A stretch of DNA of 64,000 nucleotides. It comes from Octopus vulgaris (taxonomy: Eukaryota). How positions within the stretch are numbered: the stretch's first letter is position 1; each line of letters starts with the position of its first letter. A model generated the notes under the pieces. The model did no database searches. It was not told where the DNA came from and worked only from the letters and a program-made list of their open reading frames with translations. The position numbers and the translations under genes are program-made. The DNA lies in assembly GCA_951406725.2 (NCBI GenBank), contig OX597822.1, positions 25,482,001-25,546,000 of the forward strand, given 5' to 3'. This document shows positions 257-58,836 of the stretch, piece after piece.

Positions 257-590
257 AAGGTGGTGAACTGGCAGAAACGTTGGCACCCTGGGCGCATCCT
301 TTCGTGGTCGATTAAATAAGTACCAGTTACGCACTGGGGTCGATATAATCGACTTAATCCGTTTGTCTGTCCTTGTATGTCTCCTCTGTGTTTAGCCCCT
401 TGTGGGTAGTAAAGAAATGGGTATTTCTCCTGACTGTACGTCCTGAGTACAAATTCCGCCGGGGTCGACTTTGCCTTTCATCCTTTCGGGGTCGATAAAA
501 TAAGTATCATTTGAGCACTGGGGTCGATACTATCAACTTACTCGCTCCTGGGACTTGCTGGCCTTGTGCAAAAATTTGAAATCAATATTA
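257..590 (+). mobile_element. Nested family-A SINEs: a Tx1-tailed SINE (~296-419) inside a host SINE head
   Basis: Host head 257-295, then SINE body and tail GCCCCTTGTGGGTAGTAAAGAAAT, then the host resumes at GGTATTTC (420). Confidence 0.75.
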
Positions 591-27567: not shown

Positions 27568-27598
<31 letters not shown>

Positions 27599-27599
27599 C

Positions 27600-27981
27600 T
27601 TTATTGCTCACAGGGAGCTAAACATAGTACGGACAAACAAAGGCAGACAAAAGGATTATCTGGTACTTATTTAATCGACCCCGAAAGAATGAAAGGCAAA
27701 GTGGACCTCGACGGAATTTGAACTCAGAACGTAACGGCAGACGAAATACCTATTTCTTTACTATCCACAAGCAACCAAACACAGAGAGGACAAACAAGGA
27801 CAGACAAACGGATTAAGTCGATTATAACGACCTCAGTGCGTAACTGGTACTTATTTAATCGACCCCGAAAGGATGAAAGGCAAAGTCGACCTCGGCGGAA
27901 TTTGAACTCAACGTAACGGCAGACGAAATACGGCTACGCATTTCGCCCGGCGTGCTAACGTTTCTGCCAGCTCACCGCCTT
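27600..27981 (-). mobile_element. Two nested family-A SINEs, both with Tx1-type tails
   Basis: Junction at 27750/27751 (minus strand TAAAGAAATA|GGTATTTCGTCTG); outer tail ends GCTCCCTGTGAGCAATAA next to (TA)n. Confidence 0.75.
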
Positions 27982-33215: not shown

Positions 33216-33268
<53 letters not shown>

Positions 33269-33479: not shown

Positions 33480-33997
33480 TCTTTATATATATAAACCTGA
33501 GAATGTGTGTCTGTTTGTCTGTGTGTTTCCCTAAAACTTGAGAACTACACAACCAATTTCATTCAAATTTTTACACATGTCTTACTTAGGGTCCATGAAA
33601 TTTCATGGGCAAAAAAAAATGTTCAACTTCTTGCCTAGGGCGAGCCCATAGCAATATCATATCTTCTCCACTATTTCAGTATTACGTGTTAAAAGTGAAA
33701 CAAAAACGTTTCTCTATTTTATGTCAGATACTTTCACTTTAACAATAAAAATAATAATAACAATTGAATTATATGTAGTAAGTAATAATTAAAATCAAAC
33801 TAAAGTAACATGGCAAAAGTAAAAATAGAAATTGGTATAAAATTGCATCAATGATTTGAACTTGAATAAGTGGTTTCACATGAACGGGAATAAATTAAAA
33901 ATAAAATTAGCGTGTAGAAATGGAATAGTCCAGATGGATAATAAAAAATTAAATTAAAGAAAAGACTATTGTCTATAAAGTATACAATGTAGAGAAA
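33480..33997 (+). mobile_element. Helitron-like non-autonomous element, 5' portion; the retroelement array follows directly
   Basis: A|TCTTTATATATATAAA start; similar to 9200-9360 and to the start of 58071. Confidence 0.5.
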
Positions 33998-35847
33998 GGT
34001 CGCGTTTTTTTCGGCTCCCGTGTTTTTTTGAGTTAGTTAGTTGGAGTTATTCTGGTGTGTTTATTTCGAGTAAAGAGGTTGTGAGTTCGAGTTCGTTGGA
34101 GGACGTGGAATAATTTTTTCTTGAAAATGCAAGAGCAGACTTACGCGCGAGCGGCAGGCAGAGGCCTGGTTGCCGGTGAACTGGAAATGGAGGAGGTGAT
34201 GGTCGAACAGAAGACTTTACAGAAGTATTTCGACAGTTTAAAGAGGGAGGGTGACTGCGTAAGAGTCACACCGTCCGAGGAGGAGGAAAGCAGTGCAGAG
34301 AAGCGTACTATAACGTACAGGACGTGGTGCGTGGAGTCGAAGAAAATTGAAGTAGCGGAAATAGAAGAAGTAGAAAAGTGTCTGAAGGAAATTGAGGGTG
34401 AACCCACATTTTTCAAAGAGGAAAGAAATATGCCACGGTTGTGGTATATTTTGAAACAGAAGATGAGGCAAAAAAGAATGCAACAAGAATTTTGAAGTCG
34501 GATAAGTGGACTTTGTTACCAAGTTACTGTGGAAGGAGAGCAGTGAGGATGAGAATCAATAGAATCTCACCCGAATTTAATATGGAAAGGTTGCTGGCAG
34601 CAGTGCTGTTTAACTGCAAGGATGATGTGGAAGTACTGAAGGTGGAGAAGTCAGCAGAGGTGAAGTGGTGGGGATATACGGTGCAGGTTCTGGCACACAT
34701 AACCGTGAGGGACCTGTACAACATCCCGGAGGAGTTGGTCTACCCTGACGAGACTCGGCTCCGAGTTGTGGTAGAGGGAAGACCCCCAATTTGCTATAAT
34801 TGTAAATCGAGGGGCCACATGAAGGATGTGTGCCCTCGGGAAAAAACAAAAGCACCAGAGGTTGTGATAGAGGAGTGTAAAGATGCGTGTGTGGAGGAAG
34901 CGAAAGCGGAGGAAACACGAATGGAGGAGCAGTTAAATGAGGAAGAACGAGCAAGTGTAGAAGAGGAAAAAACAGAAGAGGAAAAAACAGAAGATAGAAA
35001 GAGATCAAGGGTGGAATCACCACTGAAAGATCTAAAAAAGAAAAAAATCAAAAGTAAGATAGCAGAAGAGAAAACATACAAAGGACAGGAAGTAAAAGAG
35101 AAGGAGAGAGAGTGGCCAAGGACAGAGTTTGAACAAAAATGGGAGAAAAGAGTGAACGAACAATTGGAATCGTGTAAATATGGAAGAAGACCTACAGGAA
35201 AAAACTTGAAGGCAGTTGTGATGTATATCAAGAATACAGAAGTGGAAAAGAGACTGGTAGGTAAGAAAGGGTTGGTCAGGGTGAAGGTGAACCCAAAACT
35301 GTATGGTGAAGATGTAAAAGGCGTCATTATAGACAAAGAGACATACATAAAATTAAAAAAGATATATAATGCTATGCACATAGTGCATTATGTACGGTAT
35401 GATAAATTACCAGATGTAATAGATCAAATGGATCTATTGGATTATATGACGGACGAGCGTCTAACGTAAAAGAAAAAGAATTAGAATTGTTAATTGTAAA
35501 TTGTATGATGTAAAGTTGTATTTTGAACAAGAATATATGTAATGTTAACATGTAAATTGTAAAATTATTGTACTTTGAACTGAATATATGTAACTGGAAA
35601 AACTGTATTTTGAACTAGAATATATGAAATGTAAAATTGTAAAATTATTGTAACTGTAAAATTGTATTGGAATATATGAAATGTATAATTGTATTTTAAA
35701 CGGAACTGCGAGTTGGGGGTTCGTAAGCCGTTCCATCTCATTACATAAAATTCATTTTTACTTCATATTTTATTTTATTTTATGTACCCCATGTCCTGCC
35801 TTGTAATGTCCCCCTCTTCGTCGCCCCTTGTGGGTAATAAAAAAACA
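33998..35847 (+). mobile_element. ORF1-only non-autonomous retroelement, unit U1
   Basis: 27-bp TSD GTCTATAAAGTATACAATGTAGAGAAA (33971-33997 / 35848-35874); 5' GGTCGCGTTTTTTTCGGCTC; 3' GCCCCTTGTGGGTAATAAA; no RT sequence. Confidence 0.85.
34121..35469 (+). CDS. Tx1/L1-type ORF1 protein (RRM-like + CCHC knuckle), one frameshift near 34415
   Basis: ORFs 34121-34495 and 34441-35469 join into ...KRGKKYATVVVYFETE...VEGRPPICYNCKSRGHMKDVC. Confidence 0.8.
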
Positions 35848-35877
35848 GTCTATAAAGTATACAATGTAGAGAAAAAA

Positions 35878-37529
35878 GGTCGTGGTTTTTTCGGCTCCTG
35901 AAATTCGGTAAAAAAGAACAAAAAGCGTTGTTGTTGTTGTGGAAATTCTGAACGGCGTTGACGCGGTTTCGCGTTTCGCTCGTTCAGCGCGTTACACTTT
36001 TTCTGTTTTGGCGGCCGTTTTTCGGTCGGAGGCGACTATGAGCCGCCTCCATCAAGCGGAGGAGATGGAAGGGAGAATTTACTCTGAAATTTCGACGGAA
36101 GTATCGACATCTGAGGAGGAGTTGGCGGTGAAAAAGATGGAAGGCACCTACGCAGGTGTAACGAAGAAGTCAACGGAAAGAGAGATAGACCTGGCTAAGT
36201 TGGCGGGCCTCCAGGAGTTTGTGAAGGAGGACGAGAACGGTGAAGTCGAGCTGCTGCATCCAGTAGGGCGCGGAGACTGGTTCCATCGTAGAACCATTAA
36301 ATATAAAGTATTTATGAATGGAGGTAGAAAGATGGAAGTAATCAACATGGAAGCAATTGAAGAGGCTCTCAAGCAGACAGGAGAGGAAATTGTGTACATG
36401 ACAAAAGGATTACAATACGGAACGATAACGGTGCAATTTAAAAGCGAAAAAGCAGCCAGGAATGTAGCAGCCAAGGTGGTGAGTACAGAAAAGATTTACT
36501 TGTTACCCTCGTATCTGAATAGGCGGACAACCAGAATTAGGGTGGAGGGAATACCTCCACACCTAGAGGGCGAATTAATAACGGCTGCGGTTATAAAAGG
36601 AAATGAAGATAAAGTGGACATCCTCCACGCCATTATGAAGTATGAAGGCGTGAGAGGTGCCACACTAGTTATGAACATTCAAGCGGAGGCGGATGTTATA
36701 GAGAGGATTACGGACAGCATAAAAACTGGAAATATTATTATGAGAGTGTGGGTGGAGGGTAGGGCGCCCAGGTGCTACAAGTGTGGCCAAAGGGGTCACA
36801 TAAGAGCCTACTGCCCTCCCCCACCAAAGGAAAAAGAAAAGGAAAGCGTTGAGGAAGCCTCAGGAGAGGAAGAAAATAAACAGAAACAAACAGAGAAGGA
36901 AACGACAGAAGAAGAGGAGATGCAACAAGAGTGGAAAGAAGGGGGAACAAAGAGAAAAAGAAGGAAAAAGAAAAACTGTGCGAAGCCCCAACCCACCCCG
37001 ACACCACCCATACCCTTGGAGTCCCATCCTTCCCCTGCAAACAGTGATTCCACCCACTCCCCGCCTACAAGAAAAACAAAAACAGACACACAGAGCAAAG
37101 AAAGTCCCAAGACCCATTTTTTATGTGTTATACAAGGGAAAGACATACAAAACGTTAAAAAACTGGTGTTAACCAAGTGGTACGAACACGAAGATTGGAG
37201 CTACACGGCTGTGGATAGTGAGGATACGGGTATATTGGCGACAAGGTTTGAGGAAGAGGGTGTGTGTTGGAAGTCAGTGGAAATGAAAGATGAATGGATA
37301 GAGAGGGCTAAAAGAAAAACGAATGTTGTGATAGGTGAAACAGGAATACTAATTGAAAATGGGTGAAGAAGGACAGATAAGTGATGCTGGCGGATGGGGC
37401 CGTCGGTATCGCTCTCATATATCATTTTCATATTCCATTTGCTCATATATATGTAATTGTGATGTTCCATGTCCCCATGTCTTGTAATGTCCCCCTCTTC
37501 GTTGGCCCCTTGTGGGTAATAAAAAATCA
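35878..37529 (+). mobile_element. ORF1-only retroelement, unit U2
   Basis: 5' GGTCGTGGTTTTTTCGGCTC; 3' GCCCCTTGTGGGTAATAAA. Confidence 0.85.
35939..37366 (+). CDS. ORF1 (gag-like) protein with CCHC knuckle, intact; true start probably an ATG at 36038 or 36065
   Basis: CYKCGQRGHIRAYC knuckle; YGTITVQF RRM-like strand; homologous to LINE ORF1 43019-43885. Confidence 0.85.
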   Translation: MEILNGVDAVSRFARSARYTFSVLAAVFRSEATMSRLHQAEEMEGRIYSEISTEVSTSEEELAVKKMEGTYAGVTKKSTEREIDLAKLAGLQEFVKEDENGEVELLHPVGRGDWFHRRTIKYKVFMNGGRKMEVINMEAIEEALKQTGEEIVYMTKGLQYGTITVQFKSEKAARNVAAKVVSTEKIYLLPSYLNRRTTRIRVEGIPPHLEGELITAAVIKGNEDKVDILHAIMKYEGVRGATLVMNIQAEADVIERITDSIKTGNIIMRVWVEGRAPRCYKCGQRGHIRAYCPPPPKEKEKESVEEASGEEENKQKQTEKETTEEEEMQQEWKEGGTKRKRRKKKNCAKPQPTPTPPIPLESHPSPANSDSTHSPPTRKTKTDTQSKESPKTHFLCVIQGKDIQNVKKLVLTKWYEHEDWSYTAVDSEDTGILATRFEEEGVCWKSVEMKDEWIERAKRKTNVVIGETGILIENG

Positions 37530-39211
37530 CGTGGTTTTTTCGGCTCCTGAAAATTCGGTAAAAAAGAACAAAAAGCGTTGTTGTTGTTGTGGAAATTCTG
37601 AACGGCGTTGACGCGGTTTCGCGTTTCGCTCGTTCAGCGCGTTACACTTTTTCTGTTTTGGCGGCCGTTTTCGGTCTGTCAGACAGAAGGAAATGGACAA
37701 CCCCTACCTGATGGGAGATACGGCTGCAGTTTTTGAGTCTTTAACAGACTTGTCTACGTCTGAGGAGGAGCTAGAAATAGCAGTGAGGAAAATGGATCAG
37801 AAGCTGAGTTATACCTATGCCGGTGTAACCAAGAAGGCGGAAGAGAAAGGGGTCGACATGGCCAAGTTGCCAAGTTACCAGAAATACATGAAAAAGGAAA
37901 GCGGTGAGGTGGAACTATCACCGACACCCAGGAGAAAAGAATGGTATGATAAGAGGACCATTGTTTACAGGGTGTGCGCAAACGAAAGGAAGAGGGTAGA
38001 AGTTGTATCCATGGAATGGATAGAGGAAGCCCTGCGAAGAACTGAGGAGGAAATAAATTTTCTGACTCGAGGATCCAAGTACGGGACCGTAGTTGTGCAC
38101 TTTAAAAGTGAATCTGCAGCGAGGAAGATGGCAGCGAAGGCGGTGAAGTCGGAAAAGGTAACACTGTTACCTACGTATTTAAACAGGAGGATTACACGAA
38201 TAAGGGTGGAGGGAGTGCCACCAAACGTGGAGGCAGAATGGATTGTGGCAGCTGTGATCAGCGGCCACGAGGACGAAGTGGATATTCTCCATGCCTCGGT
38301 TAAGTCCGAAGGCTGGAGAGGCGTAACAGTGGAGCTGAACGTACAGGCAGAGACCGAGGTACTGGTGGACCTGACGGAAAGCATCAGACTGGGAGAAGTG
38401 ATCATGAGAGTGTGGGTGGAGGGCAGGGCTCCACGTTGTTACAAGTGTGGCCTGAGGGGTCACATAAGAGCCTTCTGCCCTCCCCCAGGGAAAGAAATGG
38501 ATTCCGAACCAGAGAGAGAGAAGCAGAAACCAGAGGAGAAGGAAACAGAGGAAGAGAATACACAGAAATGGAAGGAAGCTGGAAGTAAGAGGAAGAGAAG
38601 AATATGTGGAAAAAAAGAAAATAATATGGAACTCCAATCTACCCCAAAACCTCCCACACCCTCTGAGTCCCACCCTATCCATGCAGACATTGAACCCACC
38701 CGCTCCCCCCCAACAAGAAAACAAAAGAAAAAAAAGAATACACACACACAAGAGATTGAAATCGAACCCAGGCCGTACATTTGTACTATGACTGAACAGA
38801 AAGAAGTTAAAAGTCTAATGGAAGAGTATAAATGGTATGATGTTGGAGAGACTAGGTATGCTGTGATTGAAAAGAAGAACATAGGTGAGTTTATGGGGAG
38901 GTGTGAAAGGGAGAATTGGGAGGTGAAAGATATAAGAATGAGCGATGAATTCGTGGAAAATATGGATGAGTATTTCGGAGTAAGAATGGATATGGAATTT
39001 ATTCGTATTGACAAAGAACATTCAAGTGACTATGAAAAACAAAGGACAGGTAAGTGATGCTGACGGACGGGGCCGTTGGTATCGCTTTCATTTTATCATT
39101 TTTTTACGTTTAACAATTCATGTTCATAAAGTTTAATTATAATGTTCTGTGTCCCCATGTTTTGTGATGTCCGCCATTCTTCGTAGCCCCTTAGTGGGTA
39201 ATAAAGAAATA
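37530..39211 (+). mobile_element. ORF1-only retroelement, unit U3
   Basis: Bounded by CGTGGTTTTTTCGGCTC at 37530 and 39212; 3' GCCCCTTAGTGGGTAATAAAGAAATA. Confidence 0.85.
37693..39057 (+). CDS. ORF1 (gag-like) protein, 454 aa, intact
   Basis: CYKCGLRGHIRAFC knuckle; alignable with U2 but clearly diverged. Confidence 0.88.
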   Translation: MDNPYLMGDTAAVFESLTDLSTSEEELEIAVRKMDQKLSYTYAGVTKKAEEKGVDMAKLPSYQKYMKKESGEVELSPTPRRKEWYDKRTIVYRVCANERKRVEVVSMEWIEEALRRTEEEINFLTRGSKYGTVVVHFKSESAARKMAAKAVKSEKVTLLPTYLNRRITRIRVEGVPPNVEAEWIVAAVISGHEDEVDILHASVKSEGWRGVTVELNVQAETEVLVDLTESIRLGEVIMRVWVEGRAPRCYKCGLRGHIRAFCPPPGKEMDSEPEREKQKPEEKETEEENTQKWKEAGSKRKRRICGKKENNMELQSTPKPPTPSESHPIHADIEPTRSPPTRKQKKKKNTHTQEIEIEPRPYICTMTEQKEVKSLMEEYKWYDVGETRYAVIEKKNIGEFMGRCERENWEVKDIRMSDEFVENMDEYFGVRMDMEFIRIDKEHSSDYEKQRTGK

Positions 39212-40904
39212 CGTGGTTTTTTCGGCTCTGTGTTTTTTGCTCTCTGTGGAATTCGGTAAAAAGAAAAAAGAACAAAAAGTGAATGGTTGTTGTTGTAAAA
39301 TTTTGAACGTAGTTGATGCGGTTTCGCGTCTCACTGGTTCTGCGCGTTACACTTTTTCGGTTCGGGAGGCCGTTTTTCGGCCGGAGGCGACTATGAGCCG
39401 CCTCCATCAAGCGGAGGAGATGGAAGGGAGAATTTACTCTGAAATTTCGACGGAAGTATCGACATCTGAGGAGGAGTTGGCGGTGAAAGGGATGGAAGGC
39501 ACCTACGCAGGTGTAACGAAGAAGTCAACGGAAAGAGAGATAGACCTGGCTAAGTTGGCGGGCCTCCAGGAGTTTGTGAAGGAGGACGAGAACGGTGAAG
39601 TCGAGCTGCTGCATCCAGTAGGGCGCGGAGACTGGTTCCATCGTAGAACCATTAAATATAAAGTATTTATGAATGGAGGTAGAAAGATGGAAGTAATCAA
39701 CATGGAAGCAATTGAAGAGGCTCTCAAGCAGACAGGAGAGGAAATTGTGTACATGACAAAAGGATTACAATACGGAACGATAACGGTGCAATTTAAAAGC
39801 GAAAAAGCAGCCAGGAATGTAGCAGCCAAGGTGGTGAGTACAGAAAAGATTTACTTGTTACCCTCGTATCTGAATAGGCGGACAACTAGAATTAGGGTGG
39901 AGGGAATACCTCCACACCTAGAGGGCGAATTAATAACGGCTGCGGTTATAAAAGGAAATGAAGATAAAGTGGACATCCTCCACGCCATTATGAAGTATGA
40001 AGGCGTGAGAGGTGCCACACTAGTTATGAACGTTCAAGCGGAGGCGGATGTTATAGAGAGGATTACGGACAGCATAAAAACTGGAAATATTATTATGAGA
40101 GTGTGGGTGGAGGGTAGGGCGCCCAGGTGCTACAAGTGTGGCCAAAGGGGTCACATAAGAGCCTACTGCCCTCCCCCACCAAAGGAAAAAGAAAAGGAAA
40201 GCGTTGAGGAAGCCTCAGGAGAGGAAGAAAATAAACAGAAACAAACAGAGAAGGAAACGACAGAAGAAGAGGAGATGCAACAAGAGTGGAAAGAAGGGGG
40301 AACAAAGAGAAAAAGAAAGAAAAAGAAAAACTGTGCGAAACCCCAACCCACCCCAACACCACCCGCACCCTCTGAATCCCACCCTTCCCCTACAGACAGT
40401 GAACCCACCCACTCCCCTCCAACAAGAAAACAAAAGAAAAATACAGACAGACAAGAGTTTGAAAACGAACCCAGGCCGAACATTTATATTGTGACTGAAC
40501 AGAAAGAGGTTGAAAGGGTAATGGAGGAGTATGAATAGTATGAAATGGATGGGACCAGATATGCAGTGCTGGAAAAGAAGAATATAGATGAGTTTATGTT
40601 GAGGTGTGAAAGGGAGAATTGGGAGGTGAAAGATATAAGAATGAGCGATGAATTCGTGGAATATATGGAGGACAGTTTCGGAGTAAGAATGGATATGGAT
40701 GGTCTTCGTATTGGGAATGAACATTCAGGTGACAGTGAAAACAAAAGGTCAGGTAAGTGGTGCTAGCGGATGGGGCCGTTGGCACCGCTTTCATATATCA
40801 TTTTCAAAATTCATTTTACTCATATCTATGTAATTGTGATGTTCTATGTCCCCAATGTTTGTAACGTCCCCTCTATGTAGCCCCTAGTGGGTAATAAAGA
40901 ATCA
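39212..40904 (+). mobile_element. ORF1-only retroelement, unit U4
   Basis: Same 5' motif; 3' GCCCCTAGTGGGTAATAAAGAATCA. Confidence 0.85.
39213..40766 (+). pseudogene. ORF1 protein with one premature stop (TAG 40536-40538; TGG in U5)
   Basis: ORFs 39213-40538 and 40545-40766 are in frame and nearly identical to U5. Confidence 0.8.
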
Positions 40905-40969
40905 GGATAATAAAAAATTAAATTAAAGAAAAGACTATTGTCTATAAAGTATACAATGTAGAGAAAAAA

Positions 40970-42648
40970 GGTCGTGGTTTTTTCGGCTCCTGAAATTCGG
41001 TAAAAAAGAACAAAAAGCGTTGTTGTTGTTGTGGAAATTCTGAACGGCGTTGACGCGGTTTCGCGTTTCGCTCGTTCAGCGCGTTACACTTTTTCTGTTT
41101 TGGCGGCCGTTTTTCGGTCGGAGGCGACTATGAGCCGCCTCCATCAAGCGGAGGAGATGGAAGGGAGAATTTACTCTGAAATTTCGACGGAAGTATCGAC
41201 ATCTGAGGAGGAGTTGGCGGTGAAAAAGATGGAAGGCACCTACGCAGGTGTAACGAAGAAGTCAACGGAAAGAGAGATAGACCTGGCTAAGTTGGCGGGC
41301 CTCCAGGAGTTTGTGAAGGAGGACGAGAACGGTGAAGTCGAGCTGCTGCATCCAGTAGGGCGCGGAGACTGGTTCCATCGTAGAACCATTAAATATAAAG
41401 TATTTATGAATGGAGGTAGAAAGATGGAAGTAATCAACATGGAAGCAATTGAAGAGGCTCTCAAGCAGACAGGAGAGGAAATTGTGTACATGACAAAAGG
41501 ATTACAATACGGAACGATAACGGTGCAATTTAAAAGCGAAAAAGCAGCCAGGAATGTAGCAGCCAAGGTGGTGAGTACAGAAAAGATTTACTTGTTACCC
41601 TCGTATCTGAATAGGCGGACAACCAGAATTAGGGTGGAGGGAATACCTCCACACCTAGAGGGCGAATTAATAACGGCTGCGGTTATAAAAGGAAATGAAG
41701 ATAAAGTGGACATCCTCCACGCCATTATGAAGTATGAAGGCGTGAGAGGTGCCACACTAGTTATGAACATTCAAGCGGAGGCGGATGTTATAGAGAGGAT
41801 TACGGACAGCATAAAAACTGGAAATATTATTATGAGAGTGTGGGTGGAGGGTAGGGCGCCCAGGTGCTACAAGTGTGGCCAAAGGGGTCACATAAGAGCC
41901 TACTGCCCTCCCCCACCAAAGGAAAAAGAAAAGGAAAGCGTTGAGGAAGCCTCAGGAGAGGAAGAAAATAAACAGAAACAAACAGAGAAGGAAACGACAG
42001 AAGAAGAGGAGATGCAACAAGAGTGGAAAGAAGGGGGAACAAAGAGAAAAAGAAGGAAAAAGAAAAACTGTGCGAAGCCCCAACCCACCCCGACACCACC
42101 CATACCCTTGGAGTCCCATCCTTCCCCTGCAGACAGTGAACCCACCCGCTCCCCTCCAACAAGAAAACAAAAGAAAAATAATAATACAGACAGACAAGAG
42201 TTTGAAAACGAACCCAGGCCGAACATTTATATTGTGACGGAACAGAAAGAGGTTGAAAGGGTAATGGAGGAGTATGAATGGTATGAAATGGATGGGACCA
42301 GATATGCAGTGCTGGAAAAGAAGAATATAGATGAGTTTGTGTTGAGGTGTGAAAGGGAGAATTGGGAGGTGAAAGATACAAGAATGAGCGATGAATTCGT
42401 GGAATATATGGAGGACAGTTTCGGAGTAAGAATGGATATGGATGGTCTTCGTATTGGGAATGAACATTCAGGTGACAGTGAAATCAAAAGGACAGGTAAG
42501 TGATGCTGGCGGAGGGGGCCGTTAGCATCGCTTTCATATTATCATTTTTCATTTTCATTTGCTCATAAATTTAATCATATTGTTCTATGTCCCCCATGTT
42601 TTGTTATGTCCGCCATTCTTCGTAGCCCCTGGTGGGTAATAAAGAAAT
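40970..42648 (+). mobile_element. ORF1-only retroelement, unit U5
   Basis: Preceded by a copy (40905-40966) of the array's upstream flank 33936-33997; 3' GCCCCTGGTGGGTAATAAAGAAAT. Confidence 0.85.
41031..42503 (+). CDS. ORF1 (gag-like) protein with CCHC knuckle, intact
   Basis: Identical to U2 up to ...ESHPSPA, then a U3/U4-type C-terminus. Confidence 0.85.
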   Translation: MEILNGVDAVSRFARSARYTFSVLAAVFRSEATMSRLHQAEEMEGRIYSEISTEVSTSEEELAVKKMEGTYAGVTKKSTEREIDLAKLAGLQEFVKEDENGEVELLHPVGRGDWFHRRTIKYKVFMNGGRKMEVINMEAIEEALKQTGEEIVYMTKGLQYGTITVQFKSEKAARNVAAKVVSTEKIYLLPSYLNRRTTRIRVEGIPPHLEGELITAAVIKGNEDKVDILHAIMKYEGVRGATLVMNIQAEADVIERITDSIKTGNIIMRVWVEGRAPRCYKCGQRGHIRAYCPPPPKEKEKESVEEASGEEENKQKQTEKETTEEEEMQQEWKEGGTKRKRRKKKNCAKPQPTPTPPIPLESHPSPADSEPTRSPPTRKQKKNNNTDRQEFENEPRPNIYIVTEQKEVERVMEEYEWYEMDGTRYAVLEKKNIDEFVLRCERENWEVKDTRMSDEFVEYMEDSFGVRMDMDGLRIGNEHSGDSEIKRTGK

Positions 42649-42878
42649 AACATGGAGGAAAGCAATTCATTGCGTTATTAGTAAGTTGATATATATTTTT
42701 GCTCTCATACTACTTATCTCTGTTATTATATACTGTTGGTCTACCTTTTTTGTCCATTGTTGTCTAACGGACGAAGTCAACCTTCGCGCGAAGACTTCGC
42801 GTTGGTGTTCCCCCCTCAGTGGGGGAAAACTACAATCAATTTAGATTACCAAAGGCTTGTTAAAGCCATTTGTTCAAA

Positions 42879-44256
42879 ATGGAGTCCCCCATCACTTATT
42901 CGCCCGTGACGAGCGAGGATGAATACCCGGCGTTGTCGCCAAGTAAAAAAGAGGCGTTGTCGCCAAGAAAAAAAGAGGCGCTGTCGCCGAAGAAAAAGAG
43001 GCGGCGTCGCCCAAGAAAATGGTAAAACCAGTACCAGCATCAACTCCAGCAAAAAAATTCGCTGAAGTGGCTGGGAAGAAAATTAAAAAAATTAACGTGG
43101 ACAACCTGGGAAAACATGCGGACTGTGTGTCAAAAGAGGGCACGGAAGTAACCGTGGCTTCAAACGCCCAAATACAGGAGGATATTTCGAATAGGAGAAT
43201 AATCTATAAGACATTCAGTATAACAAACAGAGCAATCCAAAAAATAGAGGAGAAAAAGATTGAAAACTGCTTAAAGCCAATAATGGATAAAATTACGTAT
43301 ATCAATCGAGGGAAGAAATACGGCACAGTGGAGGTGAGATTCACGTCAGAGGAGGTAGCGAAGAAGCTATCCATGGAACCCATAAAAGCGGAGGATATTG
43401 TTCTCCTACCCCTGTATAAAGGCAAGAGAACTTCCAAAATCACTATGAACAACATCCCGCCAGAAGCGGATGCCGAAGTCCTAGTAGCAGCAGTTATGGT
43501 AGGCCTGGAGGAAAAAATAAACATCCTCCAGGCCACCGTAGAAGAAGAAGAATTCTGGAAAGGGCAAAAGATAATAATAGCTATACAAGCAGAAGTACAA
43601 ACCCTGGAAGAGATCCCAGAGACTCTAAGGATAAGCGAAGATGAAAGAGTCACAGTCTTCGTAGAGGGCAGAAAGCCGAGGTGCTTCGGCTGCGGTAAGA
43701 AGGGGCATGTAAGGGCGGAATGCCAGCCCCAACCCAAACCGCAGGAAGCACCTAAGCCAAAAGGAAAAGAAGACAATGTGTCACCAGAAGCAGCGTCAGA
43801 CGGCCCAGAAGGGAAGACTGAAGGTGTGGAGGTGATGGTAACAGCAGAACCAGCGGCGGAGAAAAAAAGAGCGAGGAAAAGATAAATGAGGAGGGGTGGG
43901 CAAAAATTATCGGAAAAAAAAAAAGAAAAACGGAAACCACCCCTCCCAGAGTAATTTTAAAAAAGAAAAAAGAGTCAATGAACTCATATATGGCCGTAAA
44001 AGCATCAAATAGCAGACTCGGAAACGTGTTGGCAGCCATGGCCAATGTGAAGAGAGTAGAGAAAAAAAATGACTTTCTAATTTACAAAATAGACCGGAAG
44101 GATTACGGGCGGATAAAGTCAGAATTCTTCCATGACGTAGGCCCACTTAGGTTGGATGTAACATCTCCACATATATTCGAGGGCCTACGTCAGACTCCCC
44201 CACGAGGCCCAGAAAAAGAGAAGGAAGAAGAAGAAAAAACCGAACCACTGATATAA
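42879..44256 (+). CDS. LINE ORF1 (RRM-like + CCHC), split by two 1-nt frameshifts in A-runs (~42995, ~43865)
   Basis: ATG at 42879 (MESPITYSP...), ORF 43019-43885 with CFGCGKKGHVRAEC, continuing into 43978-44256. Confidence 0.8.
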
Positions 44257-44265
44257 AGGTAAGTA

Positions 44266-47200
44266 ATGGATTACATTTATGTTGGTTGTTTAAATGTGCG
44301 CGGCCTGGGAGCAGGCTGGAAGCAAGGTCGCTTCCTGCATGATATCAGGTCGCGTAATTTAGATGTTATTGTTGCTACAGAAACCCGGCTAGAGGGGCCA
44401 AGAGGTCTACTCCCGCTGTTTGACGGCTACGAGAGTTTTTTCTCTCCTGGCAGTCCTACAGGCGGGAGTGGGGTGTTGGTCCTATTAAAAAGAAACCGGG
44501 TTTCTGAGAAAAAGTTAATTTTTGCAGATCCAGAAGGTAGGCTTGTCGTCATGGATTTGACGTTCAGTAATGGTAAAGTTATCAGACTGGTTGCAATTTA
44601 CGCACCCAACCATACAGGGCAAAGTGATTATTTTCGTGAAATAGAAAACTTTCTTGGTACTTCGCATTCATTAGTGGTGCTAGGAGACTTTAACACAATT
44701 TGCAAAGCGGATGTAGATTATGTTGGCTCGTGTCCAGATAGAAAAGGCAACAGTGGCTTCATGGAACTGCTAAGCCGCTTTGAGCTAGCAGATCCTTATA
44801 GGCTGGAATTTCCGAACGCTCCATTGTGGACATGGTCAAACAGCGACGGATCTTCCAGGTCGTATCTAGATAGAATACTAATTAGAAAAGTAGACAGTAA
44901 AATAGCTAAGTGTCCACAGTTTTACCCGATCAGCTACAGTGATCATAAAATGGTCACTTGTAAGCTTGACATAGATAAGGTTAAAAATAGAGGATCCGGT
45001 TACTGGAAACTTAATACGTCCCTTTTGGCGATTAAGGAGTACAAAGACCGGATTAGGAATATAATTCAGAGGGCACTATCTGGTACCATCATTAATAACA
45101 AATGGTGGTACGCCCTCAAACGAGCCATCAAGTTTGAGTCTATTAGATATAGCATAGGAGTAGTGGCTAGAGAGGCTAGAAGGGAAACTACTCTAGTTAA
45201 GGAATTAGAGGAAGCCATGAAAACTGGCTCTGCGGCTCAGGTGGCGGCCAAGAGACTGGTGTTAAACCAGCACCTCGAGGCCAAACACATGGGCTGCATT
45301 GTCAGGGCTAGAATCCGTCATATGGGATGTGAAGGAATCAACGCCGTGAGATGGGCCCGAGTGGTGGAAGCTCAGCATGGTAACGATGCCACGATTCGAT
45401 CTTTGACGAACCAACAAGGTGAGTTGATAAACGAACCCGAGGAGATGTGTGAGGCCTTTCAGGAGCACTTCGCTCAGCTTTTCGGTGAGTGCGGCGGACT
45501 GGATAGGAGGAGGGCCTTTACGGACCTACTCGACGGTCTGCCGCGCTTATCGGGGCGAGATGCGGAGGGCTGTGAAGGGCCAATCACGCCTGAGGAGGTG
45601 GTTGAGGCAATGGCAGACTGCGGCGCGGGCAAGGCGCCGGGTTTGGATGGTCTACCCTATGAGTTATATAAGAGTATGCCAGACTTGTTCGGGCACCTAC
45701 TGGCGGAGGTCTACGCGAACTGGCAGCAGAACGGGCTTATACCCAGATCTGTGCGCCGGGGAGTAGTGACTCTCGTCAGAAAGGACCCGAGCAAGGGGGA
45801 GTGCATTGATAATTTCAGGCCCATCACTCTGCTAAACACAGAGTTGAAGATTTTGGCCAAAGTGTTATCGAAAAGATTGGCGCGTGTCGCGGATGGTCTG
45901 ATCGGAGGGGCACAGACATGTGCCGTTCCGGGCAGATCCATTCAGGATAATCTCCATCTAATGCGGTACACTATAGAGGGGTTTAATAGTGATTCTGGCA
46001 AGGGTGGGGCACTGGTCCATTTAGACCAATCTAAAGCTTTTGATAGGGTCGACCATCGTTACCTGGTATCTGCCCTGGCACAGTTCGGGCTGAGCCTTGG
46101 ATTCCTCAGGTGGATTATCGAAATTTATGATAACATCGACTCGGTAGTTCGGGTGAACGGCTTCTTGTCGAAGCCGTTCAAAATCAAACGCTCGGTTCGT
46201 CAAGGGTGTCCGCTCTCCCCGCTTTTGTACGTGATGGCTCTTGAGCCATTACTGCGAAAACTGAGCGGCATCCCGAGACAGCCAGGTAATGGAAAATCAG
46301 TGTCAGCGTACGCGGATGACATCACCATCATCGTAACCGAAATGGACCACCTATGTAAAGTAGGCAAGGCCATAGAGGTGTACGAGACGGTGACAGGAGC
46401 AAAAGTTAATCGCGAAAAGTCAGTCGGCTTGCAACTCGGCACCTGGAGAGGCAAGTCGATGCCTCCTGACAGCGTCGTGGGACGTTGGACGGAGGGTCCG
46501 ATTAAACTGCTAGGGGTCTGGTTCGGTCCAGACCTCCAAATAGAGAAGAATTGGGGCGAGGTAACGAGCAAGGTGGCTGCAGTAGCCAAGACCTGGTCTT
46601 GGCGGTGGCTATCCCTGAAAGGGAGGGCGGAGGTGGCCAATGTGTTTATCGCATCGGTTATCACCTACCGCCTTTCCGTCGTTCCTTGCCCTGATTCGTG
46701 GTTGATCAAGTTGGAAAGACAGCTCTTCTACTTCTTGTGGAAGGGCGGGAAACCACTTGTGAAACGCTCTACTTGCTGTCAACAACCGTTAAAGGGTGGG
46801 CTAGGGATGCCTTGGCTGATGATGCGCAGACATGCGCTGAGGTTAAGACATCTGTGGCTCTACCTGGATGGTGAACGGGTGTGGTCTTCGCTAGCAAAAC
46901 TGATGTTTCCCAAGTTCACTAGTTTCGGTGGATGGGAAACCTGGCTGAATCGTAGATCGAAACTTGGTACTTGGTACACGGAGTGTCGCAAGGCTCTCCT
47001 GCTATTCCGTCGCTCGGGCAACGCCTGCGGTGGGGGTTCCACCACTTTCTTCTATAGAGGGTTGGTAGAGGCGGAATGTGAAGATACCTTGGGGGAAACC
47101 CTAGGTCTCGACGATAATCAGCTGGCCAGTCTGTTCCGACGTACGTTCGAGCCAAGGACACTGGACAACTTCCAGAAGTCTCTGGCATGGCAATGCTACA

Positions 47201-47661
47201 GAGGAGCTCTACCTGTTCGGGATAAACTCGCAAGGCACGGTGGCCAAGACAGTCCGATATGTCCAAGATGCGGGCGGGATAGGGAAACCGTCCCGCACGC
47301 GATTGTTCATTGTCCGGACGTGTCTGAGGTGTGGGTTTATGCCGAACACCTGTTGTCAGGTACACGAAGAGTACAGCTGTCGACTGAGTCGATTACAAAA
47401 ATTGACCCACCGGATTTCCTCGTGAATGAAGGTAAGTTTCGTTTTCTCGTTGTAGTAGCAATCGCGAAAGAGGTGATATGGAAGACGAGAATGAAAGGTT
47501 TACAGTCAGGCAAGTTCATCTCCGGCCCTGGTTTGATGAATTATTTCATCTTTCACCTGAAAAGGAAGATAGGGCTGGAGAGAATATGCCTGACTAGGAG
47601 AGCGTATGAAGAACGATGGAAGGATGTAGCACGGAAGTTGCGAATGAAAGTTACAACATAA
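44266..47661 (+). CDS. LINE ORF2: APE endonuclease + reverse transcriptase + C-terminal Cys/His (zf-RVT-like) domain, 1131 aa, intact
   Basis: APE motifs LNVRGL, ETR, GDFN, LDRI, SDH; GYWKLN; RT motifs PGLDG, FRPITLLN, DQSKAFDRV, RQGCPLSP, YADD; CPRC-x8-H-x4-C. Confidence 0.97.
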   Translation: MDYIYVGCLNVRGLGAGWKQGRFLHDIRSRNLDVIVATETRLEGPRGLLPLFDGYESFFSPGSPTGGSGVLVLLKRNRVSEKKLIFADPEGRLVVMDLTFSNGKVIRLVAIYAPNHTGQSDYFREIENFLGTSHSLVVLGDFNTICKADVDYVGSCPDRKGNSGFMELLSRFELADPYRLEFPNAPLWTWSNSDGSSRSYLDRILIRKVDSKIAKCPQFYPISYSDHKMVTCKLDIDKVKNRGSGYWKLNTSLLAIKEYKDRIRNIIQRALSGTIINNKWWYALKRAIKFESIRYSIGVVAREARRETTLVKELEEAMKTGSAAQVAAKRLVLNQHLEAKHMGCIVRARIRHMGCEGINAVRWARVVEAQHGNDATIRSLTNQQGELINEPEEMCEAFQEHFAQLFGECGGLDRRRAFTDLLDGLPRLSGRDAEGCEGPITPEEVVEAMADCGAGKAPGLDGLPYELYKSMPDLFGHLLAEVYANWQQNGLIPRSVRRGVVTLVRKDPSKGECIDNFRPITLLNTELKILAKVLSKRLARVADGLIGGAQTCAVPGRSIQDNLHLMRYTIEGFNSDSGKGGALVHLDQSKAFDRVDHRYLVSALAQFGLSLGFLRWIIEIYDNIDSVVRVNGFLSKPFKIKRSVRQGCPLSPLLYVMALEPLLRKLSGIPRQPGNGKSVSAYADDITIIVTEMDHLCKVGKAIEVYETVTGAKVNREKSVGLQLGTWRGKSMPPDSVVGRWTEGPIKLLGVWFGPDLQIEKNWGEVTSKVAAVAKTWSWRWLSLKGRAEVANVFIASVITYRLSVVPCPDSWLIKLERQLFYFLWKGGKPLVKRSTCCQQPLKGGLGMPWLMMRRHALRLRHLWLYLDGERVWSSLAKLMFPKFTSFGGWETWLNRRSKLGTWYTECRKALLLFRRSGNACGGGSTTFFYRGLVEAECEDTLGETLGLDDNQLASLFRRTFEPRTLDNFQKSLAWQCYRGALPVRDKLARHGGQDSPICPRCGRDRETVPHAIVHCPDVSEVWVYAEHLLSGTRRVQLSTESITKIDPPDFLVNEGKFRFLVVVAIAKEVIWKTRMKGLQSGKFISGPGLMNYFIFHLKRKIGLERICLTRRAYEERWKDVARKLRMKVTT

Positions 47662-47906
47662 ATGTAATACCAAGTGCAACCAAAAGTATCAGTGGGGAGG
47701 CGGGGCTCGTGGGGTCCGAGCTAAACCCGCACCCACTCCACCCGTAATGTCTTCCGGTCTGTCCTATCACTCGATTTTTGTCCATTTATTGTTATTCATG
47801 AAAATTTTTAAACCCGATTTATTGTAAAAACCCATTCGTTTGTCTGACCCCATCATCAGATTGTATTGTCCCATCTGTGTTCGCCCCTTGTGGGTAATAA
47901 TAAAAC

Positions 47907-48200
47907 AACATGGAGGAAAGCACCTTCAAAAAGTATCTTTGTGCGACTATGAAAGGTATCTAATCAGAGGCGGTAAATTCGCCACAATAGAAGCAAGGTT
48001 CGAGTCAACGGAGCGTGCAAGGGAGTACTCGACTCGAACCTTGCAAAGTGGAAATATTTTATTTTTACCTTTATGTCTGGGATGTAGGTCGTACCGGAAA
48101 AAAAATTTTAATGCCCCCCCCCCCCCGAAGTAGAGGTAGGCTGGATTGTAGTCACACTTCTATACAAGAGGGAGGACAAGATACAATTGATCGAAATTAT
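47907..48200 (+). pseudogene. Degraded internal fragment of a related ORF1
   Basis: YLIRGGKFATIEARFESTERAREYSTRTLQSGNILFLPLCLG aligns to YINRGKKYGTVEVRFTSEEVAKKLSMEPIKAEDIVLLPLYKG. Confidence 0.7.
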
Positions 48201-48361: not shown

Positions 48362-48401
48362 ACTAGCACTATGACCCGGCAACGACGGGTCTTTAATGCT
48401 A

Positions 48402-48403
<2 letters not shown>
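48362..48403. mobile_element. Helitron-like 3' terminal hairpin ending in CTAG|T
   Basis: ACTAGCA..GACCCG-GCAACGA-CGGGTC..TGCTAGT. Confidence 0.5.
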
Positions 48404-48492: not shown

Positions 48493-48870
48493 GGAATGAC
48501 AATCAGACAGACATACAGACTGACAAATAGTTAGATAGATAGTTTAGACACCATAAGCAAACGAGTAAGATTGGCAGTCTGTTGTTTTAGATGACTGTGT
48601 AGTCACGACCTCACATAGGAGCTCATTCAGTTCTCACATTCTTGATCAAGCGGTATGTCGACGTTGTGACAACTGAAAGGCAAGTGAGGAGCATGAGCAG
48701 TCAGTTAGTATTCATCTTCAATTTGGTTGACGGGAATAACGGGAATCGAACTCATGACCTTATGCTCTAGAGTCCAACATCTTTGGCCATGAGTCTACCC
48801 ACCCCCACATACACATACATATATACATGCATACACACATATGCGCAGCTGTATCTGTGTGGTAAGAAGA

Positions 48871-49273
48871 AGGCGGCGAGCTGGCAGAATCGTTAGCACG
48901 CCGGGCGAAATGCTTTGCGGTATTTCGTCTGCTGTTACGTTCTGAGTTCAAATTCCGCCGAGGTCGACTTTGCCTTTCATTCTTTCGGGGTCGATAAATT
49001 AAGTACCAGTTACGCACTGGGGTCAATATAATCGACTTGATCCGTTTGTCTGTCCTTGTTTTTCCCCTCTGTGTTTAGCCCCTTTTGGGTAGTAAAGAAA
49101 TAGGTATTTCGTCTGTCTTTACGTTCTGAGTTCAAATTCCGCCGAGGTCGACTTTGCCTTTCATCCTTTCGGGATCGATAAATTAAGCACCAATTACGTA
49201 CTGGTGTCGATCTAATCGACTGACCCCCTCCTAAAACATGTTGGGCCATGTGCCTAGAGTAGGAAAGAATATT
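48871..49273 (+). mobile_element. Nested family-A SINEs: a Tx1-tailed SINE within a host SINE head
   Basis: GGTATTTCGTCTG at 48919 and again at 49103, immediately after the tail GCCCCTTTTGGGTAGTAAAGAAATA. Confidence 0.8.
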
Positions 49274-50179
49274 AAGGTTAAAGTGTCTCTTGCTATATTA
49301 TATTCAATATTGTGTGAAAGAGTGTGTGTGAAGCATATATGACATTCTGTTGCATCATTTGTTGGGGACGAGAATAAGGAGGATCTGTTAACTTGTAAAC
49401 ACTATTGTAGTTGGAAGAATATTTATTGGTGACCTTCTTAAAAGTGGCTTCGTTGTTATAACAGAGTTATTATAACAGAGTTTTACATTGAGCTTGCTGT
49501 ATAACTTATATAATCTGCTATTAAGTCAATTGAAGTTAGTAGTTAATGCTATTTAAGTCAATTGAAGTTAGTACTTAAAGTTATTTTAGAGTACTGAAAG
49601 TACAGTTGATGTCCTTTCTTAATGTATCTAATCTGTCACCATTAATTGCTTTTGTTTTTCTTAACCCATCTTCCCTGTAAAGGTCAAAGCCCATTGTAGT
49701 GAGTACATCTAAGTTACATAAACGTACAAGATCTGATACACCCACGTTATCTCATAACCAGATTCTTCTGTCGAAAAAGTCCTTGGGTCACATACTTTTA
49801 CTCAAGGTTCTTGTATAACGATAAGCTTTTTCTTACCATTTTCTAACAAGTACATTTACATGGTTGTCGTCTGTTGTAGTTGTTATGAAATTCTAAGACG
49901 CTGCTCAATAATTTAATATTTCATTGATACTATTTAGAATCCCCTTATTAACTAATGGTGTCTCCAGTTATATGAGTTCAGTAAATTGCATTTAGAGCTA
50001 GATACAAAGCTTTGCTTATAGCTCTTAATCGTTTCCTTACGGTCCTTAATTGCTAGTTTTCAGGTTTTCGTTATGTCTCTAAGGCGGCGGGATGGCAGAA
50101 TCATTAGCGCGTCAGAAAACAATCCCTTACAGCCTTTGTTCTCGTTCTTAACATTTTGAGTTCAAATCACACTGAGAAC

Positions 50180-55650: not shown

Positions 55651-55654
55651 AGCT

Positions 55655-56297
55655 GTCACGTGTGGGATGGATCCGTCTATCAGCCGAGCCTGTAGTGACG
55701 ACCGCACCGCCGCCCTCTTTCAATCGGCCAGGCCAGGCAGTTTTCCTTTGTCTGATGGCTGTGGTGAAAGCGGTTGTTTGGTGGTCAAGGCTGAAAGGCA
55801 TGAGGGACAGATACATTCCTCTTTGGTAGAGCTTTCATTGACTTCCTCAAGTTTCTCTTGAAAAGGAAATTGAGAGTGGAGAGGGAAATGTTGTCCTCAA
55901 GTGAGTTTATTGAAAAGTGGGCAAAAGTTGCGAAAATTTTAAGAGTGGTTAGTACATCTTTAAATGTAGAACTATGAGTCGGAGAGAAGGAATTGAAGAG
56001 GGCACTTGCTCTTGGGGTTTCAGGGAAAATTCGGACTGTGGGGTTCCTCGATTATCAGTAGAGGCCTTCCTGTATCAGGAGGGCCACATCTCTATCATCT
56101 TCACTGCCACTTTTTTTAACCTTTGTATACTATACATATGTCCATTCTCTTTCAATGTATACCGTGTATAATTAATTTATTTATTTCTATCATTTTATTA
56201 TATCTTTTTCTGTCATTTCATTATATGTAAATCCCCATACTTTATGTTTATCTTTGTATTGACCCCTTCATTCTTCGCCTTGTAGCAAATAAAAGAG
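55655..56297 (+). mobile_element. 5'-truncated older Tx1/L1-type LINE (ORF2 C-terminus + 3' UTR)
   Basis: ...AVVKAVVWWSRLKG...KRKLRVEREMLSSSEFIEKWAKVAKILRV matches ORF2 AIAKEVIWKTRMKG...KRKIGLERICLTRRAYEERWKDVARKLRM; degenerate tail. Confidence 0.75.
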
Positions 56298-56301
56298 ATT
56301 A

Positions 56302-56892: not shown

Positions 56893-57109
56893 GAGGGGCA
56901 GCGAGCTGACCGAATCGTTAAACCGCCGGGCAAAATGCTTAGCAACATTCCGACGATCTTCACGTTCTGAGTTCAAATGACTCCGCGGTCGGCTTTGCCT
57001 TTCATCCTTTCGCGGTCGATAAAATAAGTACCAGTTGAACACTGGGGTTAATATAATCGACTCGTACCTTCCACCGCAAAATTGCTGCCTTTGTGGCAAA
57101 ATTTGAAAC

Positions 57110-57110
<1 letters not shown>
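56893..57110 (+). mobile_element. tRNA-derived SINE family A within (ATT)n
   Basis: Family head and body flanked by (ATT)n. Confidence 0.75.
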
Positions 57111-57157
<47 letters not shown>

Positions 57158-58456: not shown

Positions 58457-58836
58457 TCAATAATATAATAAAAACGTGAATATTGAGATTTAAAAAATGT
58501 AGAAAATATAGTTTTTCATATCTATTTTTCTCATTTTTTTTATTTATCCGTTTTATTTTACGTAATACACACACACACAGTTACATGTATGCCTGTTCTT
58601 TCATAAATGCATAATTCGTTGAAATATACTTTTACAGACATATATGTTTATATAGAAATGAATAAAAATATACAAAAGTTGCCTGCTGAAATAAGGATAC
58701 GAAAACTGTCCTTGATCCTGAGTTCGGAGAACTAAGCTACGCTCCTGGACTGTAAAAACTGAACATAGTTTATTTCATTCAAATATTTTTTCTATATAAC
58801 CGTAAGAGTGGCTGTGTGGTAAGTAGCTTGCTTACC

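Follow-up and report, generated by a model that had tools for sequence, protein, structure and literature searches.

The window analysed here is a 64,000-nucleotide (nt) stretch of Octopus vulgaris DNA (GCA_951406725.2, contig OX597822.1, positions 25,482,001 to 25,546,000 of the forward strand), an AT-rich, microsatellite-rich piece of animal DNA. It holds a full-length long interspersed element (LINE) whose last ~47 nt are shared by five neighbouring units that encode only open reading frame 1 (ORF1) and by several copies of a short interspersed element (SINE). This shared 3' tail is probably the signal for the ORF2 protein (ORF2p) of an octopus group of L1/Tx1-type LINEs, which the ORF1-only units and the SINE would use in trans. 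All seven protein matches to an ORF1 of the window are Octopus vulgaris proteins, spread over several chromosome-sized contigs, which hints at further copies.

The array of ORF1-only units and the full-length LINE

Positions 33998-47907 are occupied by five head-to-tail ORF1-only units (u1 to u5) followed by the LINE, and the features of this region are as follows.

33936..33997, +, target DNA, left part: relic of an ORF1 paralogue, decayed (profile E 6 on its own, which is weak; collinear with the right part)
33998..35847, +, u1, ORF1-only unit (ORF1 at 34127-35469, one frameshift near 34400; tail at 35798-35847)
35848..35877, +, 30-nt copy of target DNA found upstream of u1, directly preceding u2
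35878..37529, +, u2, ORF1-only unit (ORF at 36038-37366; tandem RRM-like folds and one CCHC knuckle)
37530..39211, +, u3, ORF1-only unit (ORF at 37693-39057)
39212..40904, +, u4, ORF1-only unit (ORF from 39393, internal stop at 40536-40538)
40905..40969, +, 65-nt copy of the upstream target DNA (equal to 33936-33997 save for three extra A), preceding u5
40970..42649, +, u5, ORF1-only unit (ORF at 41130-42503; tail at 42598-42649)
42650..42664, +, left copy of a 15-nt target-site duplication (TSD), exactly adjoined by the 3' end of u5
42665..47907, +, full-length LINE, probably of L1/Tx1 type
~42879-44256, +, LINE ORF1, broken by two frameshifts, near 43010 and 43880
44266-47661, +, LINE ORF2, open, 1131 amino acids, with APE-endonuclease, reverse transcriptase (RT) and zf-RVT
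47837..47907, +, LINE 3' tail, with the final ~47 nt common to all units and SINEs
47883..47895, +, proposed 4-bp hairpin GCCC-CTTGT-GGGT (dG -3.7), followed by 12 A-rich nt up to the junction
47908..47922, +, right copy of the 15-nt TSD, directly 3' of the LINE
47908..48200, +, target DNA, right part: decayed ORF1 paralogue (profile E 1e-6, with the similarity carried on in a different frame)

The ORF2 of the LINE contains the domains Exo_endo_phos, RVT_1 and zf-RVT, the last a C-terminal CCHC. Among solved structures, L1 ORF2p is nearest (E 5e-65, residues 3-867) and R2 matches over the RT only (E 5e-26), a comparison of clades that is limited by the few represented in the Protein Data Bank. 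An APE endonuclease, an RT, a C-terminal CCHC and closest likeness to L1 are features of the L1 superclade; the clade itself is not nameable from the RT tree, whose 33 rows include no named animal Tx1 or L1 reference. The combination of RRM domains with a CCHC knuckle in ORF1 is typical of Tx1 and unlike mammalian L1. By the likeness of its ORF2 and the architecture of its ORF1 the LINE is probably of L1/Tx1 type, the Tx1 label leaning on that architecture.

No match to ORF2 was found in u1 to u5. The structural model of the unit ORF1 has a mean predicted local distance difference test score of 57 (~70-80 in the core), with RRM proteins, or complexes containing them, as all of the top matches listed and a zf-CCHC match below the Pfam cut-off. 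The ORF1 of the LINE is 33% identical to that of u2, and the u1 ORF1 shares 24% amino acid identity with that of u2. In the ORF1 core, the proportion of synonymous differences among the LINE, u1, u3 and u5 is 0.64-0.76, that is, synonymous sites are saturated, while the u3-u5 comparison gives a nonsynonymous divergence (dN) of 0.27 and a synonymous divergence (dS) of 2.0, hence dN/dS of ~0.13, which denotes purifying selection. Because of the 33% identity to u2 and this saturation, the sequences indicate that the units did not arise from this LINE by deletion but are old lineages that have kept a working ORF1 together with the tail.

The units are also mosaics of one another. For example, u2 and u5 are 99.4% identical over their 5' 1.2 kb and differ in their C-termini, and u3 combines a 5' untranslated region (UTR) like that of u2 and u5 with an ORF1 core of its own and a C-terminus and tail near those of u5. 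Additionally, u2, u4 and u5 are 98-100% identical over ~900 nt, and several frameshifts lie in or near homopolymer runs, as would be expected if the array were partly an assembly artefact built from duplicated reads of a single ORF1-only unit. That explanation is highly improbable, since u1, u3 and the LINE are either unalignable with the other members of the array or ~70% identical to them, the 3' parts differ from unit to unit, and the junctions are exact.

Judging from the protein register, about 10 nt appear to be missing between the left and right parts of the target, and we infer that the six elements sit at one nick in a decayed ORF1 paralogue, a site seen in this one window. A TSD is missing from four of the five internal junctions. 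Such an array might arise by repeated insertion at one nick of RNAs carrying 5' target sequence, or in a single event in which the RT switches template, from one tail-bearing RNA to another and to the cut top strand. The missing TSDs and the copied stretches that match the local flank lean towards the second route, and R2 proteins have been reported to jump between templates and to give head-to-tail products (PMC11371274).

A Helitron was considered as the direct host of the array, and the 5'-like end at ~33462 and the 3'-like end at ~48402 may belong to one, but the immediate flanks of the array are the ORF1 relic. Short Helitron-like elements, with a TC start and a 3' hairpin followed by CTAG, occur at 58067-58458 (+), 33462-33662, 48362-48402 and 8880-9405, the last consisting of two inverted copies around an (AT)n run, and the 5' end to the left and the 3' end to the right of the array may bracket the ORF1 relic.

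Several further observations concern the units. The motif GGTAAGT, which we take to be a perfect splice-donor-like sequence, stands at 39049, 40752 and 42495, the ORF1 ends of u3, u4 and u5, and at 44258, just before the ORF2 of the LINE, in regions otherwise unalignable between LINE and units. The five units start (33998, 35878, 37530, 39212 and 40970) with the same motif of ~20 nt containing GGTTTTTTCGG or a close variant, which is absent at the 5' end of the LINE and loosely resembles the SINE insertion site GGTATTTCG with a 3-nt offset. The 3' UTR of u1 is the longest and includes an internal direct repeat of ~98 nt (73% identical) within 35517-35701.

The shared tail and its proposed hairpin

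Outside the array, the tail was found on four SINE-borne copies, designated S360, S49043, S27810 and S27653, and, as an eleventh and diverged copy, on a second LINE.

295..419, +, S360, SINE truncated at its 5' end, bearing the shared tail and lodged in an older SINE copy
48870..49102, +, S49043, full SINE head with the shared tail, followed by a SINE half from head position 50
49103-49274, +, SINE half downstream of S49043, with a type-B tail
27751..27981, -, S27810, full SINE head with the shared tail and a broken hairpin (27775-27763)
27750-27662, -, SINE half downstream of S27810, starting at head position 50
27594..27653, -, S27653, divergent tail with an intact compensatory hairpin (27618-27606), followed by (AT)n
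55653..56300, +, second Tx1-like LINE, 5'-truncated and frameshifted, 33-35% amino acid identity to the ORF2 C-terminus
56251-56300, +, tail of the second LINE, homologous to the shared tail, stem broken in register, followed by (TTA)n

The ten tails of the LINE, u1 to u5 and the four SINE-borne copies align over ~47 nt in the same register, and in all nine tail pairs tested the local score lay above that of every one of 1000 dinucleotide shuffles, which upholds the claim of the original prediction that LINE, ORF1-only units and a SINE subfamily have one tail in common. The tail strings it quoted for the LINE (47837-47900) and the SINE (360-418) are present as written. The LINE and S360 tails are 85% identical over 41 nt (E 2e-6), and ~60 nt of the SINE align with the last ~73 nt of the LINE, so that the SINE tail is homologous to the very end of the LINE. 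Between LINE and units, blastn detects DNA similarity in the last 40-48 nt only, matching three of the five units and these in the tail alone; identity of the LINE tail to the unit tails ranges from 32/47 to 39/47 (68-83%). The two best-preserved SINE tails agree with the units at 33-36 of 45-47 positions and with the LINE at 32-33 of 46. All ten tails stop 12 nt past the stem, and a poly(A) run was found at none of the ten junctions.

Between the first 10 nt of its tail, which it shares with the SINEs only, and the ~47 nt common to all, the LINE has ~11 extra nt. The block CGTTTGTCTG, which the original prediction had included in the common tail, is indeed found in the LINE and the SINEs but is absent from the ORF1-only units. 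Bases specific to the LINE also complete a second hairpin at 47840-47862 (6 bp, 8-nt loop), which the SINE tails do not have.

Because tails remain 68-83% identical while the synonymous sites of ORF1 are saturated, the tail has probably been under long-term constraint, as selection for recognition by ORF2p would impose. Since the tail is kept across ORF1 lineages and poly(A) is lacking, these sequences fit the stringent, tail-dependent L1/Tx1 element that had been proposed, with the 4-bp stem as a candidate for the recognised feature. Tail exchange between units may also have occurred, because the units are mosaics of one another.

Alternatively, the tail might be kept as a signal for 3'-end processing of RNA polymerase II transcripts, with mobilisation relaxed and the SINE merely carrying a captured LINE end. 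AATAAA follows the stem in the LINE, u1 to u5, S27653 and the second LINE, CA or TA forms the end point of several tails, and the TTGT upstream never varies; we take AATAAA, the TGTA-like motif and the end motifs to be 3'-processing signals. Three SINE copies, however, have AGTAAA in place of AATAAA with the remainder of the tail preserved, copying primed on poly(A) in the relaxed manner would be expected to leave the poly(A) that none of the junctions has, and we know of no processing motif that matches the GCCCCT-GTGGGT block, so that this explanation is improbable.

A covariance model built from the ten tails recovers all ten and has its best outside match at 56251-56295 (E 0.021), in the tail of the second LINE; the score of that tail against the LINE and u1 tails was reached by none of 1000 shuffles. 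A tail-like match at 59627 was dismissed as chance, as it sits inside a decayed ORF1 coding frame. No Rfam model for the shared tail appeared among the 150 of 177 matches listed for the window, those listed being miRNA and snoRNA models on microsatellites, all below the gathering score.

Other copies of the SINE family end in tails of two further types, A and B, at the following positions.

28033-27981 (-), 49222-49274, 28670-28620 (-), 16078-16025 (-), 16446-16396 (-): type A/B SINE tails
539-590, 21785-21836, 57063-57116, 173-224, 16022-15970 (-): type A/B SINE tails, continued

Homology of these with the shared tail was rejected: none of 32 pairwise tests was significant (best 35/500 shuffles), and the covariance model did not find them. 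Against six A/B tails, the score of the second LINE tail was reached by 6, 28 and 37 of 1000 shuffles for three, borderline at best, and by 182-524 for the rest. The A/B tails show a GGC-CTTGT-GCC hairpin, which has the same loop as the LINE tail but a reversed stem, T-A and A-T being swapped between the types; 70% of its cells pair, with five double changes, a result matched by 11-132 of 500 shuffles, and RNAalifold predicts no structure on these tails.

The original prediction held that the shared tail contains a covarying stem-loop with a constant stem and a variable loop. Part of this stands: RNAalifold on the ten tails returns exactly the proposed 4-bp hairpin and nothing else, 39 of 40 stem cells (ten tails, four pairs) can pair, and two of the 40 hold double changes, which 14 of 500 shuffles match (a control that is not to be read as a probability). 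The five loop variants are likewise present (CTTGT in the LINE, u1, u2 and S360, CTTAGT in u3, CTAGT in u4, CTGGT in u5 and CTTTT in S49043), as is the compensatory GCTC-CCTGT-GAGC at 27618-27606 on the minus strand. Among the LINE and the five units, however, the loop is nearly as invariant (4/5 positions) as the stem (8/8), and the next six bases are invariant at 5/6, as against 9/24 of the upstream positions. What the LINE and unit tails hold is a conserved sequence block of 18-19 nt rather than covariation.

A number of findings weigh against a recognised hairpin and, more broadly, against the tail-signal interpretation favoured here. The two double changes are both confined to a single locus, in SINE copies that neighbour each other, and one of these copies had been left out of the evidence for compensation. 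This copy, the S27810 hairpin at 27775-27763 (minus), reads GTTG-CTTGT-GGAT, in which one pair is compensatory, one is a wobble and the closing position is a G-G mismatch; at a dG of +3.8 kcal/mol it cannot fold, and four of its eight stem positions are changed as against 8/207 elsewhere in the copy (p 4e-4). In the second LINE tail (56251-56300), none of three scorable positions pairs in register, and a shifted register gives 2 bp only (dG -0.5). The pairing probability of the hairpin is 0.04-0.11 in the LINE and at most 0.01 in u5. Under simulated neutral decay to 20-25% divergence, a double change arises in 11-17% and a double change with an intact stem in 5-6%. Finally, all of the evidence comes from one 64-kb window and one array, the assembly of the three near-identical units u2, u4 and u5 is taken as it stands, and the LINE and SINE targets have no evident sequence in common.

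Single-sequence folding places the hairpin in the minimum free energy structure of three of the ten tails; a z below -2 is obtained for S27810 alone, which folds differently. In the LINE, the slipped register CCC-TTGT-GGG (dG -4.1) is as stable as the proposed hairpin. An alternative long-range helix, TGTCC/GGGTA, was rejected: it is 94% paired but has no double changes, and 445-500 of 500 shuffles equal it. In S27653 the tail has diverged further (13/60) than the head (4/84; p 0.003), and it is joined to the head at a point differing from that of the other tailed SINEs. For these two reasons the compensatory stem of S27653 probably comes from a separate replicating, sister lineage rather than from decay, a lineage that probably kept the C-G to T-A and G-T to G-C changes together; plain decay yields a double change in a stem that stays intact in about 5-8% of simulations. 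The tail itself was probably captured separately. Covariation thus supports the stem-loop weakly, and the odds that pairing within the conserved block matters for recognition are about even.

Tailed SINEs inside other SINE copies and further repeats

A profile of the SINE head finds 20 pieces of this family in the window. The head contains motifs resembling A and B boxes, identified by eye against what we take to be the consensus; ARAGORN reports no tRNA (0 genes), and none is among the 150 of 177 Rfam matches listed. Heads of the tailed SINEs differ from the local majority by 3-5%, and the LINE retains an open ORF2.

All three SINEs with the standard head-tail junction directly abut head position 50 of another SINE copy, a position at the apex of a long head hairpin (dG -40; 0/300 shuffles), and the three downstream SINE halves bear three different tails. 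In S360, the host copy is preserved on both sides: 258-294 corresponds to head positions 2-38, and 420-590 picks up again at position 50 and has a tail of another kind, with 11 nt missing at the insertion. Divergence is higher in these flanks (18/146) than in the insert (5/116; p 0.03). Because the host pieces flank a truncated insert and outdiverge it, and because the downstream tails differ, the arrangement reads as insertion of tailed SINEs into existing SINE copies and not as a fixed dimer. With a tailed SINE landing at position 50, the first 49 nt of the host can therefore rebuild a full head. The 5' side is seamless in two of the three tailed composites (S49043 and S27810), where the copy may join by homology, with the host supplying the A-box region. 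SINE targeting of the head of its own family was not found in full-text literature searches.

The seamless, dimer-like composites, the separate junction of S27653 and the mosaic units would also suit a history of array recombination or gene conversion, combined with a fixed SINE dimer or template-switch chimeras, in which neither selection on the tail nor targeting plays a part. Such a history has a small chance of being right: exchange within the array sits poorly with LINE-unit tails of the low identity given above and with similarity that ends abruptly at ~47 nt, the tail is also present outside the array on the SINEs and the second LINE, and the downstream tails are of three kinds, with the 5' piece of the S360 host kept before the truncated insert.

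The window contains several other repeats. A second decayed ORF1 paralogue at 59360-60300 (+; profile E 9e-10) has stops and frameshifts and no recognisable shared tail downstream. A broken RT element at 50500-54220 (+), with a C-terminal restriction-like endonuclease motif and an end in (AAT)n, presumably resembles the Dong/R4 group, and a 3' fragment of it lies at 63150-63665 (-) inside (AAT)n. A second abundant SINE-like family, unrelated to the first, occurs at 9411-9899, 10558-11098, 12644-12898, 19056-19559, 32832-33266, 60813-61051 and 62180-62538. The 1.2-kb region 14346-15531 matches only itself in self-comparison and is apparently a long inverted repeat, while 25328-26014 (+) gives a weak tblastn match to the RT region of ORF2 (E 0.06) and is possibly an old LINE fragment. 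NCBIfam yielded no match above its cut-off, and a scan of GTDB genomes for related loci gave 20 pattern matches, none of them confirmed.

Proposed mobilisation in trans and known systems

In the mechanism proposed, ORF2p would pick up RNA by the ~50-nt tail as a cis signal, with no need of poly(A), and target-primed reverse transcription would always start 12 nt past the GCCC-N5-GGGT block. The recognised element would be a conserved sequence block able to fold into a small hairpin. Old lineages resembling HAL1 would have kept the tail and lost ORF2, a tRNA-type SINE would have acquired the tail, probably twice, and both would be mobilised in trans, with several sister LINE families as the most likely drivers. 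Insertion would be site-preferring, with the units and the LINE entering at one nick in an ORF1 relic and the tailed SINE at position 50.

The original prediction had a single LINE serving two classes of parasite through a 4-bp stem with a free loop. In its favour are the pairing stem cells, double changes and RNAalifold consensus described above, the extra 10-nt block common to LINE and SINE only, and the position of the LINE beside the units in the array. Its weaknesses are the near-invariant loop, the stem broken in two tails, units that do not derive from this LINE, a second Tx1-like family in the window, and insertion sites that differ. The tail is shared with both classes, but the combined claim is unlikely. 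Sister families that share a tail type are likelier than one driver for both, because over 47 nt the SINE tail matches the LINE no better than it matches the units, because the targets show no sequence likeness and a second family is at hand, and because O. vulgaris has 13 recently active L1-Tx1 families according to the consulted part of PMC13282606 (80 in all per its supplement).

A bolder reading would join these elements into one community, supported by a Tx1-type ORF2p, with a SINE targeting its own head, concatemeric arrays and a shared loop code. Ancient ORF1-only lineages would be stacked in mixed arrays inside ORF1 relics of their kin, and such arrays might be concatemers that arise at a single stroke as the RT jumps from one tail-bearing RNA to the next and to the cut strand of the target. 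The SINE would target the hairpin apex of its own family's head, so that even a truncated copy regains a complete promoter, and read-through SINE RNA would carry target sequence that guides the next insertion. The CUUGU loop, found on a reversed stem in other tails, might be read by several partner LINEs. Taken jointly, these proposals are doubtful.

Sharing of tails between LINEs and SINEs, elements of HAL1 type, targeting by Tx1 and mixed tandem arrays are each already known. Searches of the full-text literature, which excluded Repbase, Dfam and subscription papers, turned up no animal L1/Tx1 element whose non-poly(A) tail is common to a SINE and to ORF1-only lineages, so that the families may be catalogued in those sources; nor is the octopus tail system described in the consulted portions of PMC4758252, PMC9115989 and PMC10294476. 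The system bears on whether stringent recognition of the tail was ancestral in the L1 clade and later gave way to poly(A) use in mammals and plants. This question becomes testable with a small set of reporters, since the octopus LINE combines an open ORF2 with a candidate tail of 50 nt that occurs naturally in intact, compensatory and broken forms. SINE targeting of its own family and non-telomeric mixed ORF1-only arrays would add to the understanding of how non-autonomous elements persist, and a tail-specific, site-preferring ORF2p would be of interest for RNA-templated gene insertion.

Stringent pairs in the L1 clade have been reported in the consulted parts of PMC3472496 and PMC3747384, namely maize LINE1-1_ZM with ZmSINE2/3 and Chlamydomonas L1-1_CR with SINEX-3_CR. 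A 45-nt hairpin tail is conserved in one monocot L1 lineage, and of the 58 pairs in a 2012 survey just three involved a SINE with an L1-clade tail, each of them from plants or algae (both PMC3472496). As in these pairs, the last ~45-50 nt of the octopus LINE are the most conserved, are shared with a SINE and are proposed to form a hairpin. The maize and Chlamydomonas systems are plant or algal, mostly end in poly(A), and have variable stems with compensatory changes, whereas the octopus system has an animal host, no poly(A), a near-invariant stem and ORF1-only units that share the tail.

For ZfL2, recognition is described in the consulted part of PMC4176376 as loop-specific and stem-generic, a model that the conserved loop of the octopus tail would fit; UnaL2 and ZfL2-1/2, whose 3' hairpin is read by ORF2p, belong to the L2 clade, have been proven experimentally and have microsatellite-type 3' ends, while the octopus case is known from sequence alone. 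Partners of bivalve SINEs are CR1, CR1-Zenon, L2 and Nimb (PMC11481361, in part). Crocodilian Tx1-Mar and SINEU (PMC4494074, in part) likewise use other transposons as targets and insert in tandem, with target duplications and deletions and target-derived 5' extensions. SINEU has heads from small nuclear RNA and poly(A), and no LINE sharing the 3' end of SINEU-1 is reported in the consulted portion of that paper. The Tx1-Mar/SINEU partnership is deduced there from shared targets, whereas the octopus elements share a tail and differ in their targets.

In Drosophila R1 arrays, according to the consulted parts of PMC2718515 and PMC3414825, new copies enter the 5' TSD, with 9-bp target deletions and duplications of upstream target; interspersed non-autonomous SIDEs and recognition of the 3' UTR are further points of likeness. 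Those arrays involve the R1 clade, a ribosomal DNA target, copies separated by TSDs and non-coding SIDEs, in contrast to the octopus array with its internal junctions largely devoid of TSDs, its ORF1-encoding units and its decayed ORF1 target.

The octopus units resemble HAL1 (PMC5753468, in part) in being non-autonomous retroelements with ORF1 only. They are HAL1-like in their working and not members of HAL1, having an ORF1 with RRM and CCHC whose matches are Octopus vulgaris proteins. HAL1 derives from mammalian L1, having lost ORF2, and is poly(A)-dependent, and HeT-A is a telomeric, jockey-clade element with ORF1 only that forms head-to-tail arrays with autonomous partners. The octopus units differ from both in combining an RRM and CCHC ORF1 with a shared non-poly(A) tail at an interstitial site.
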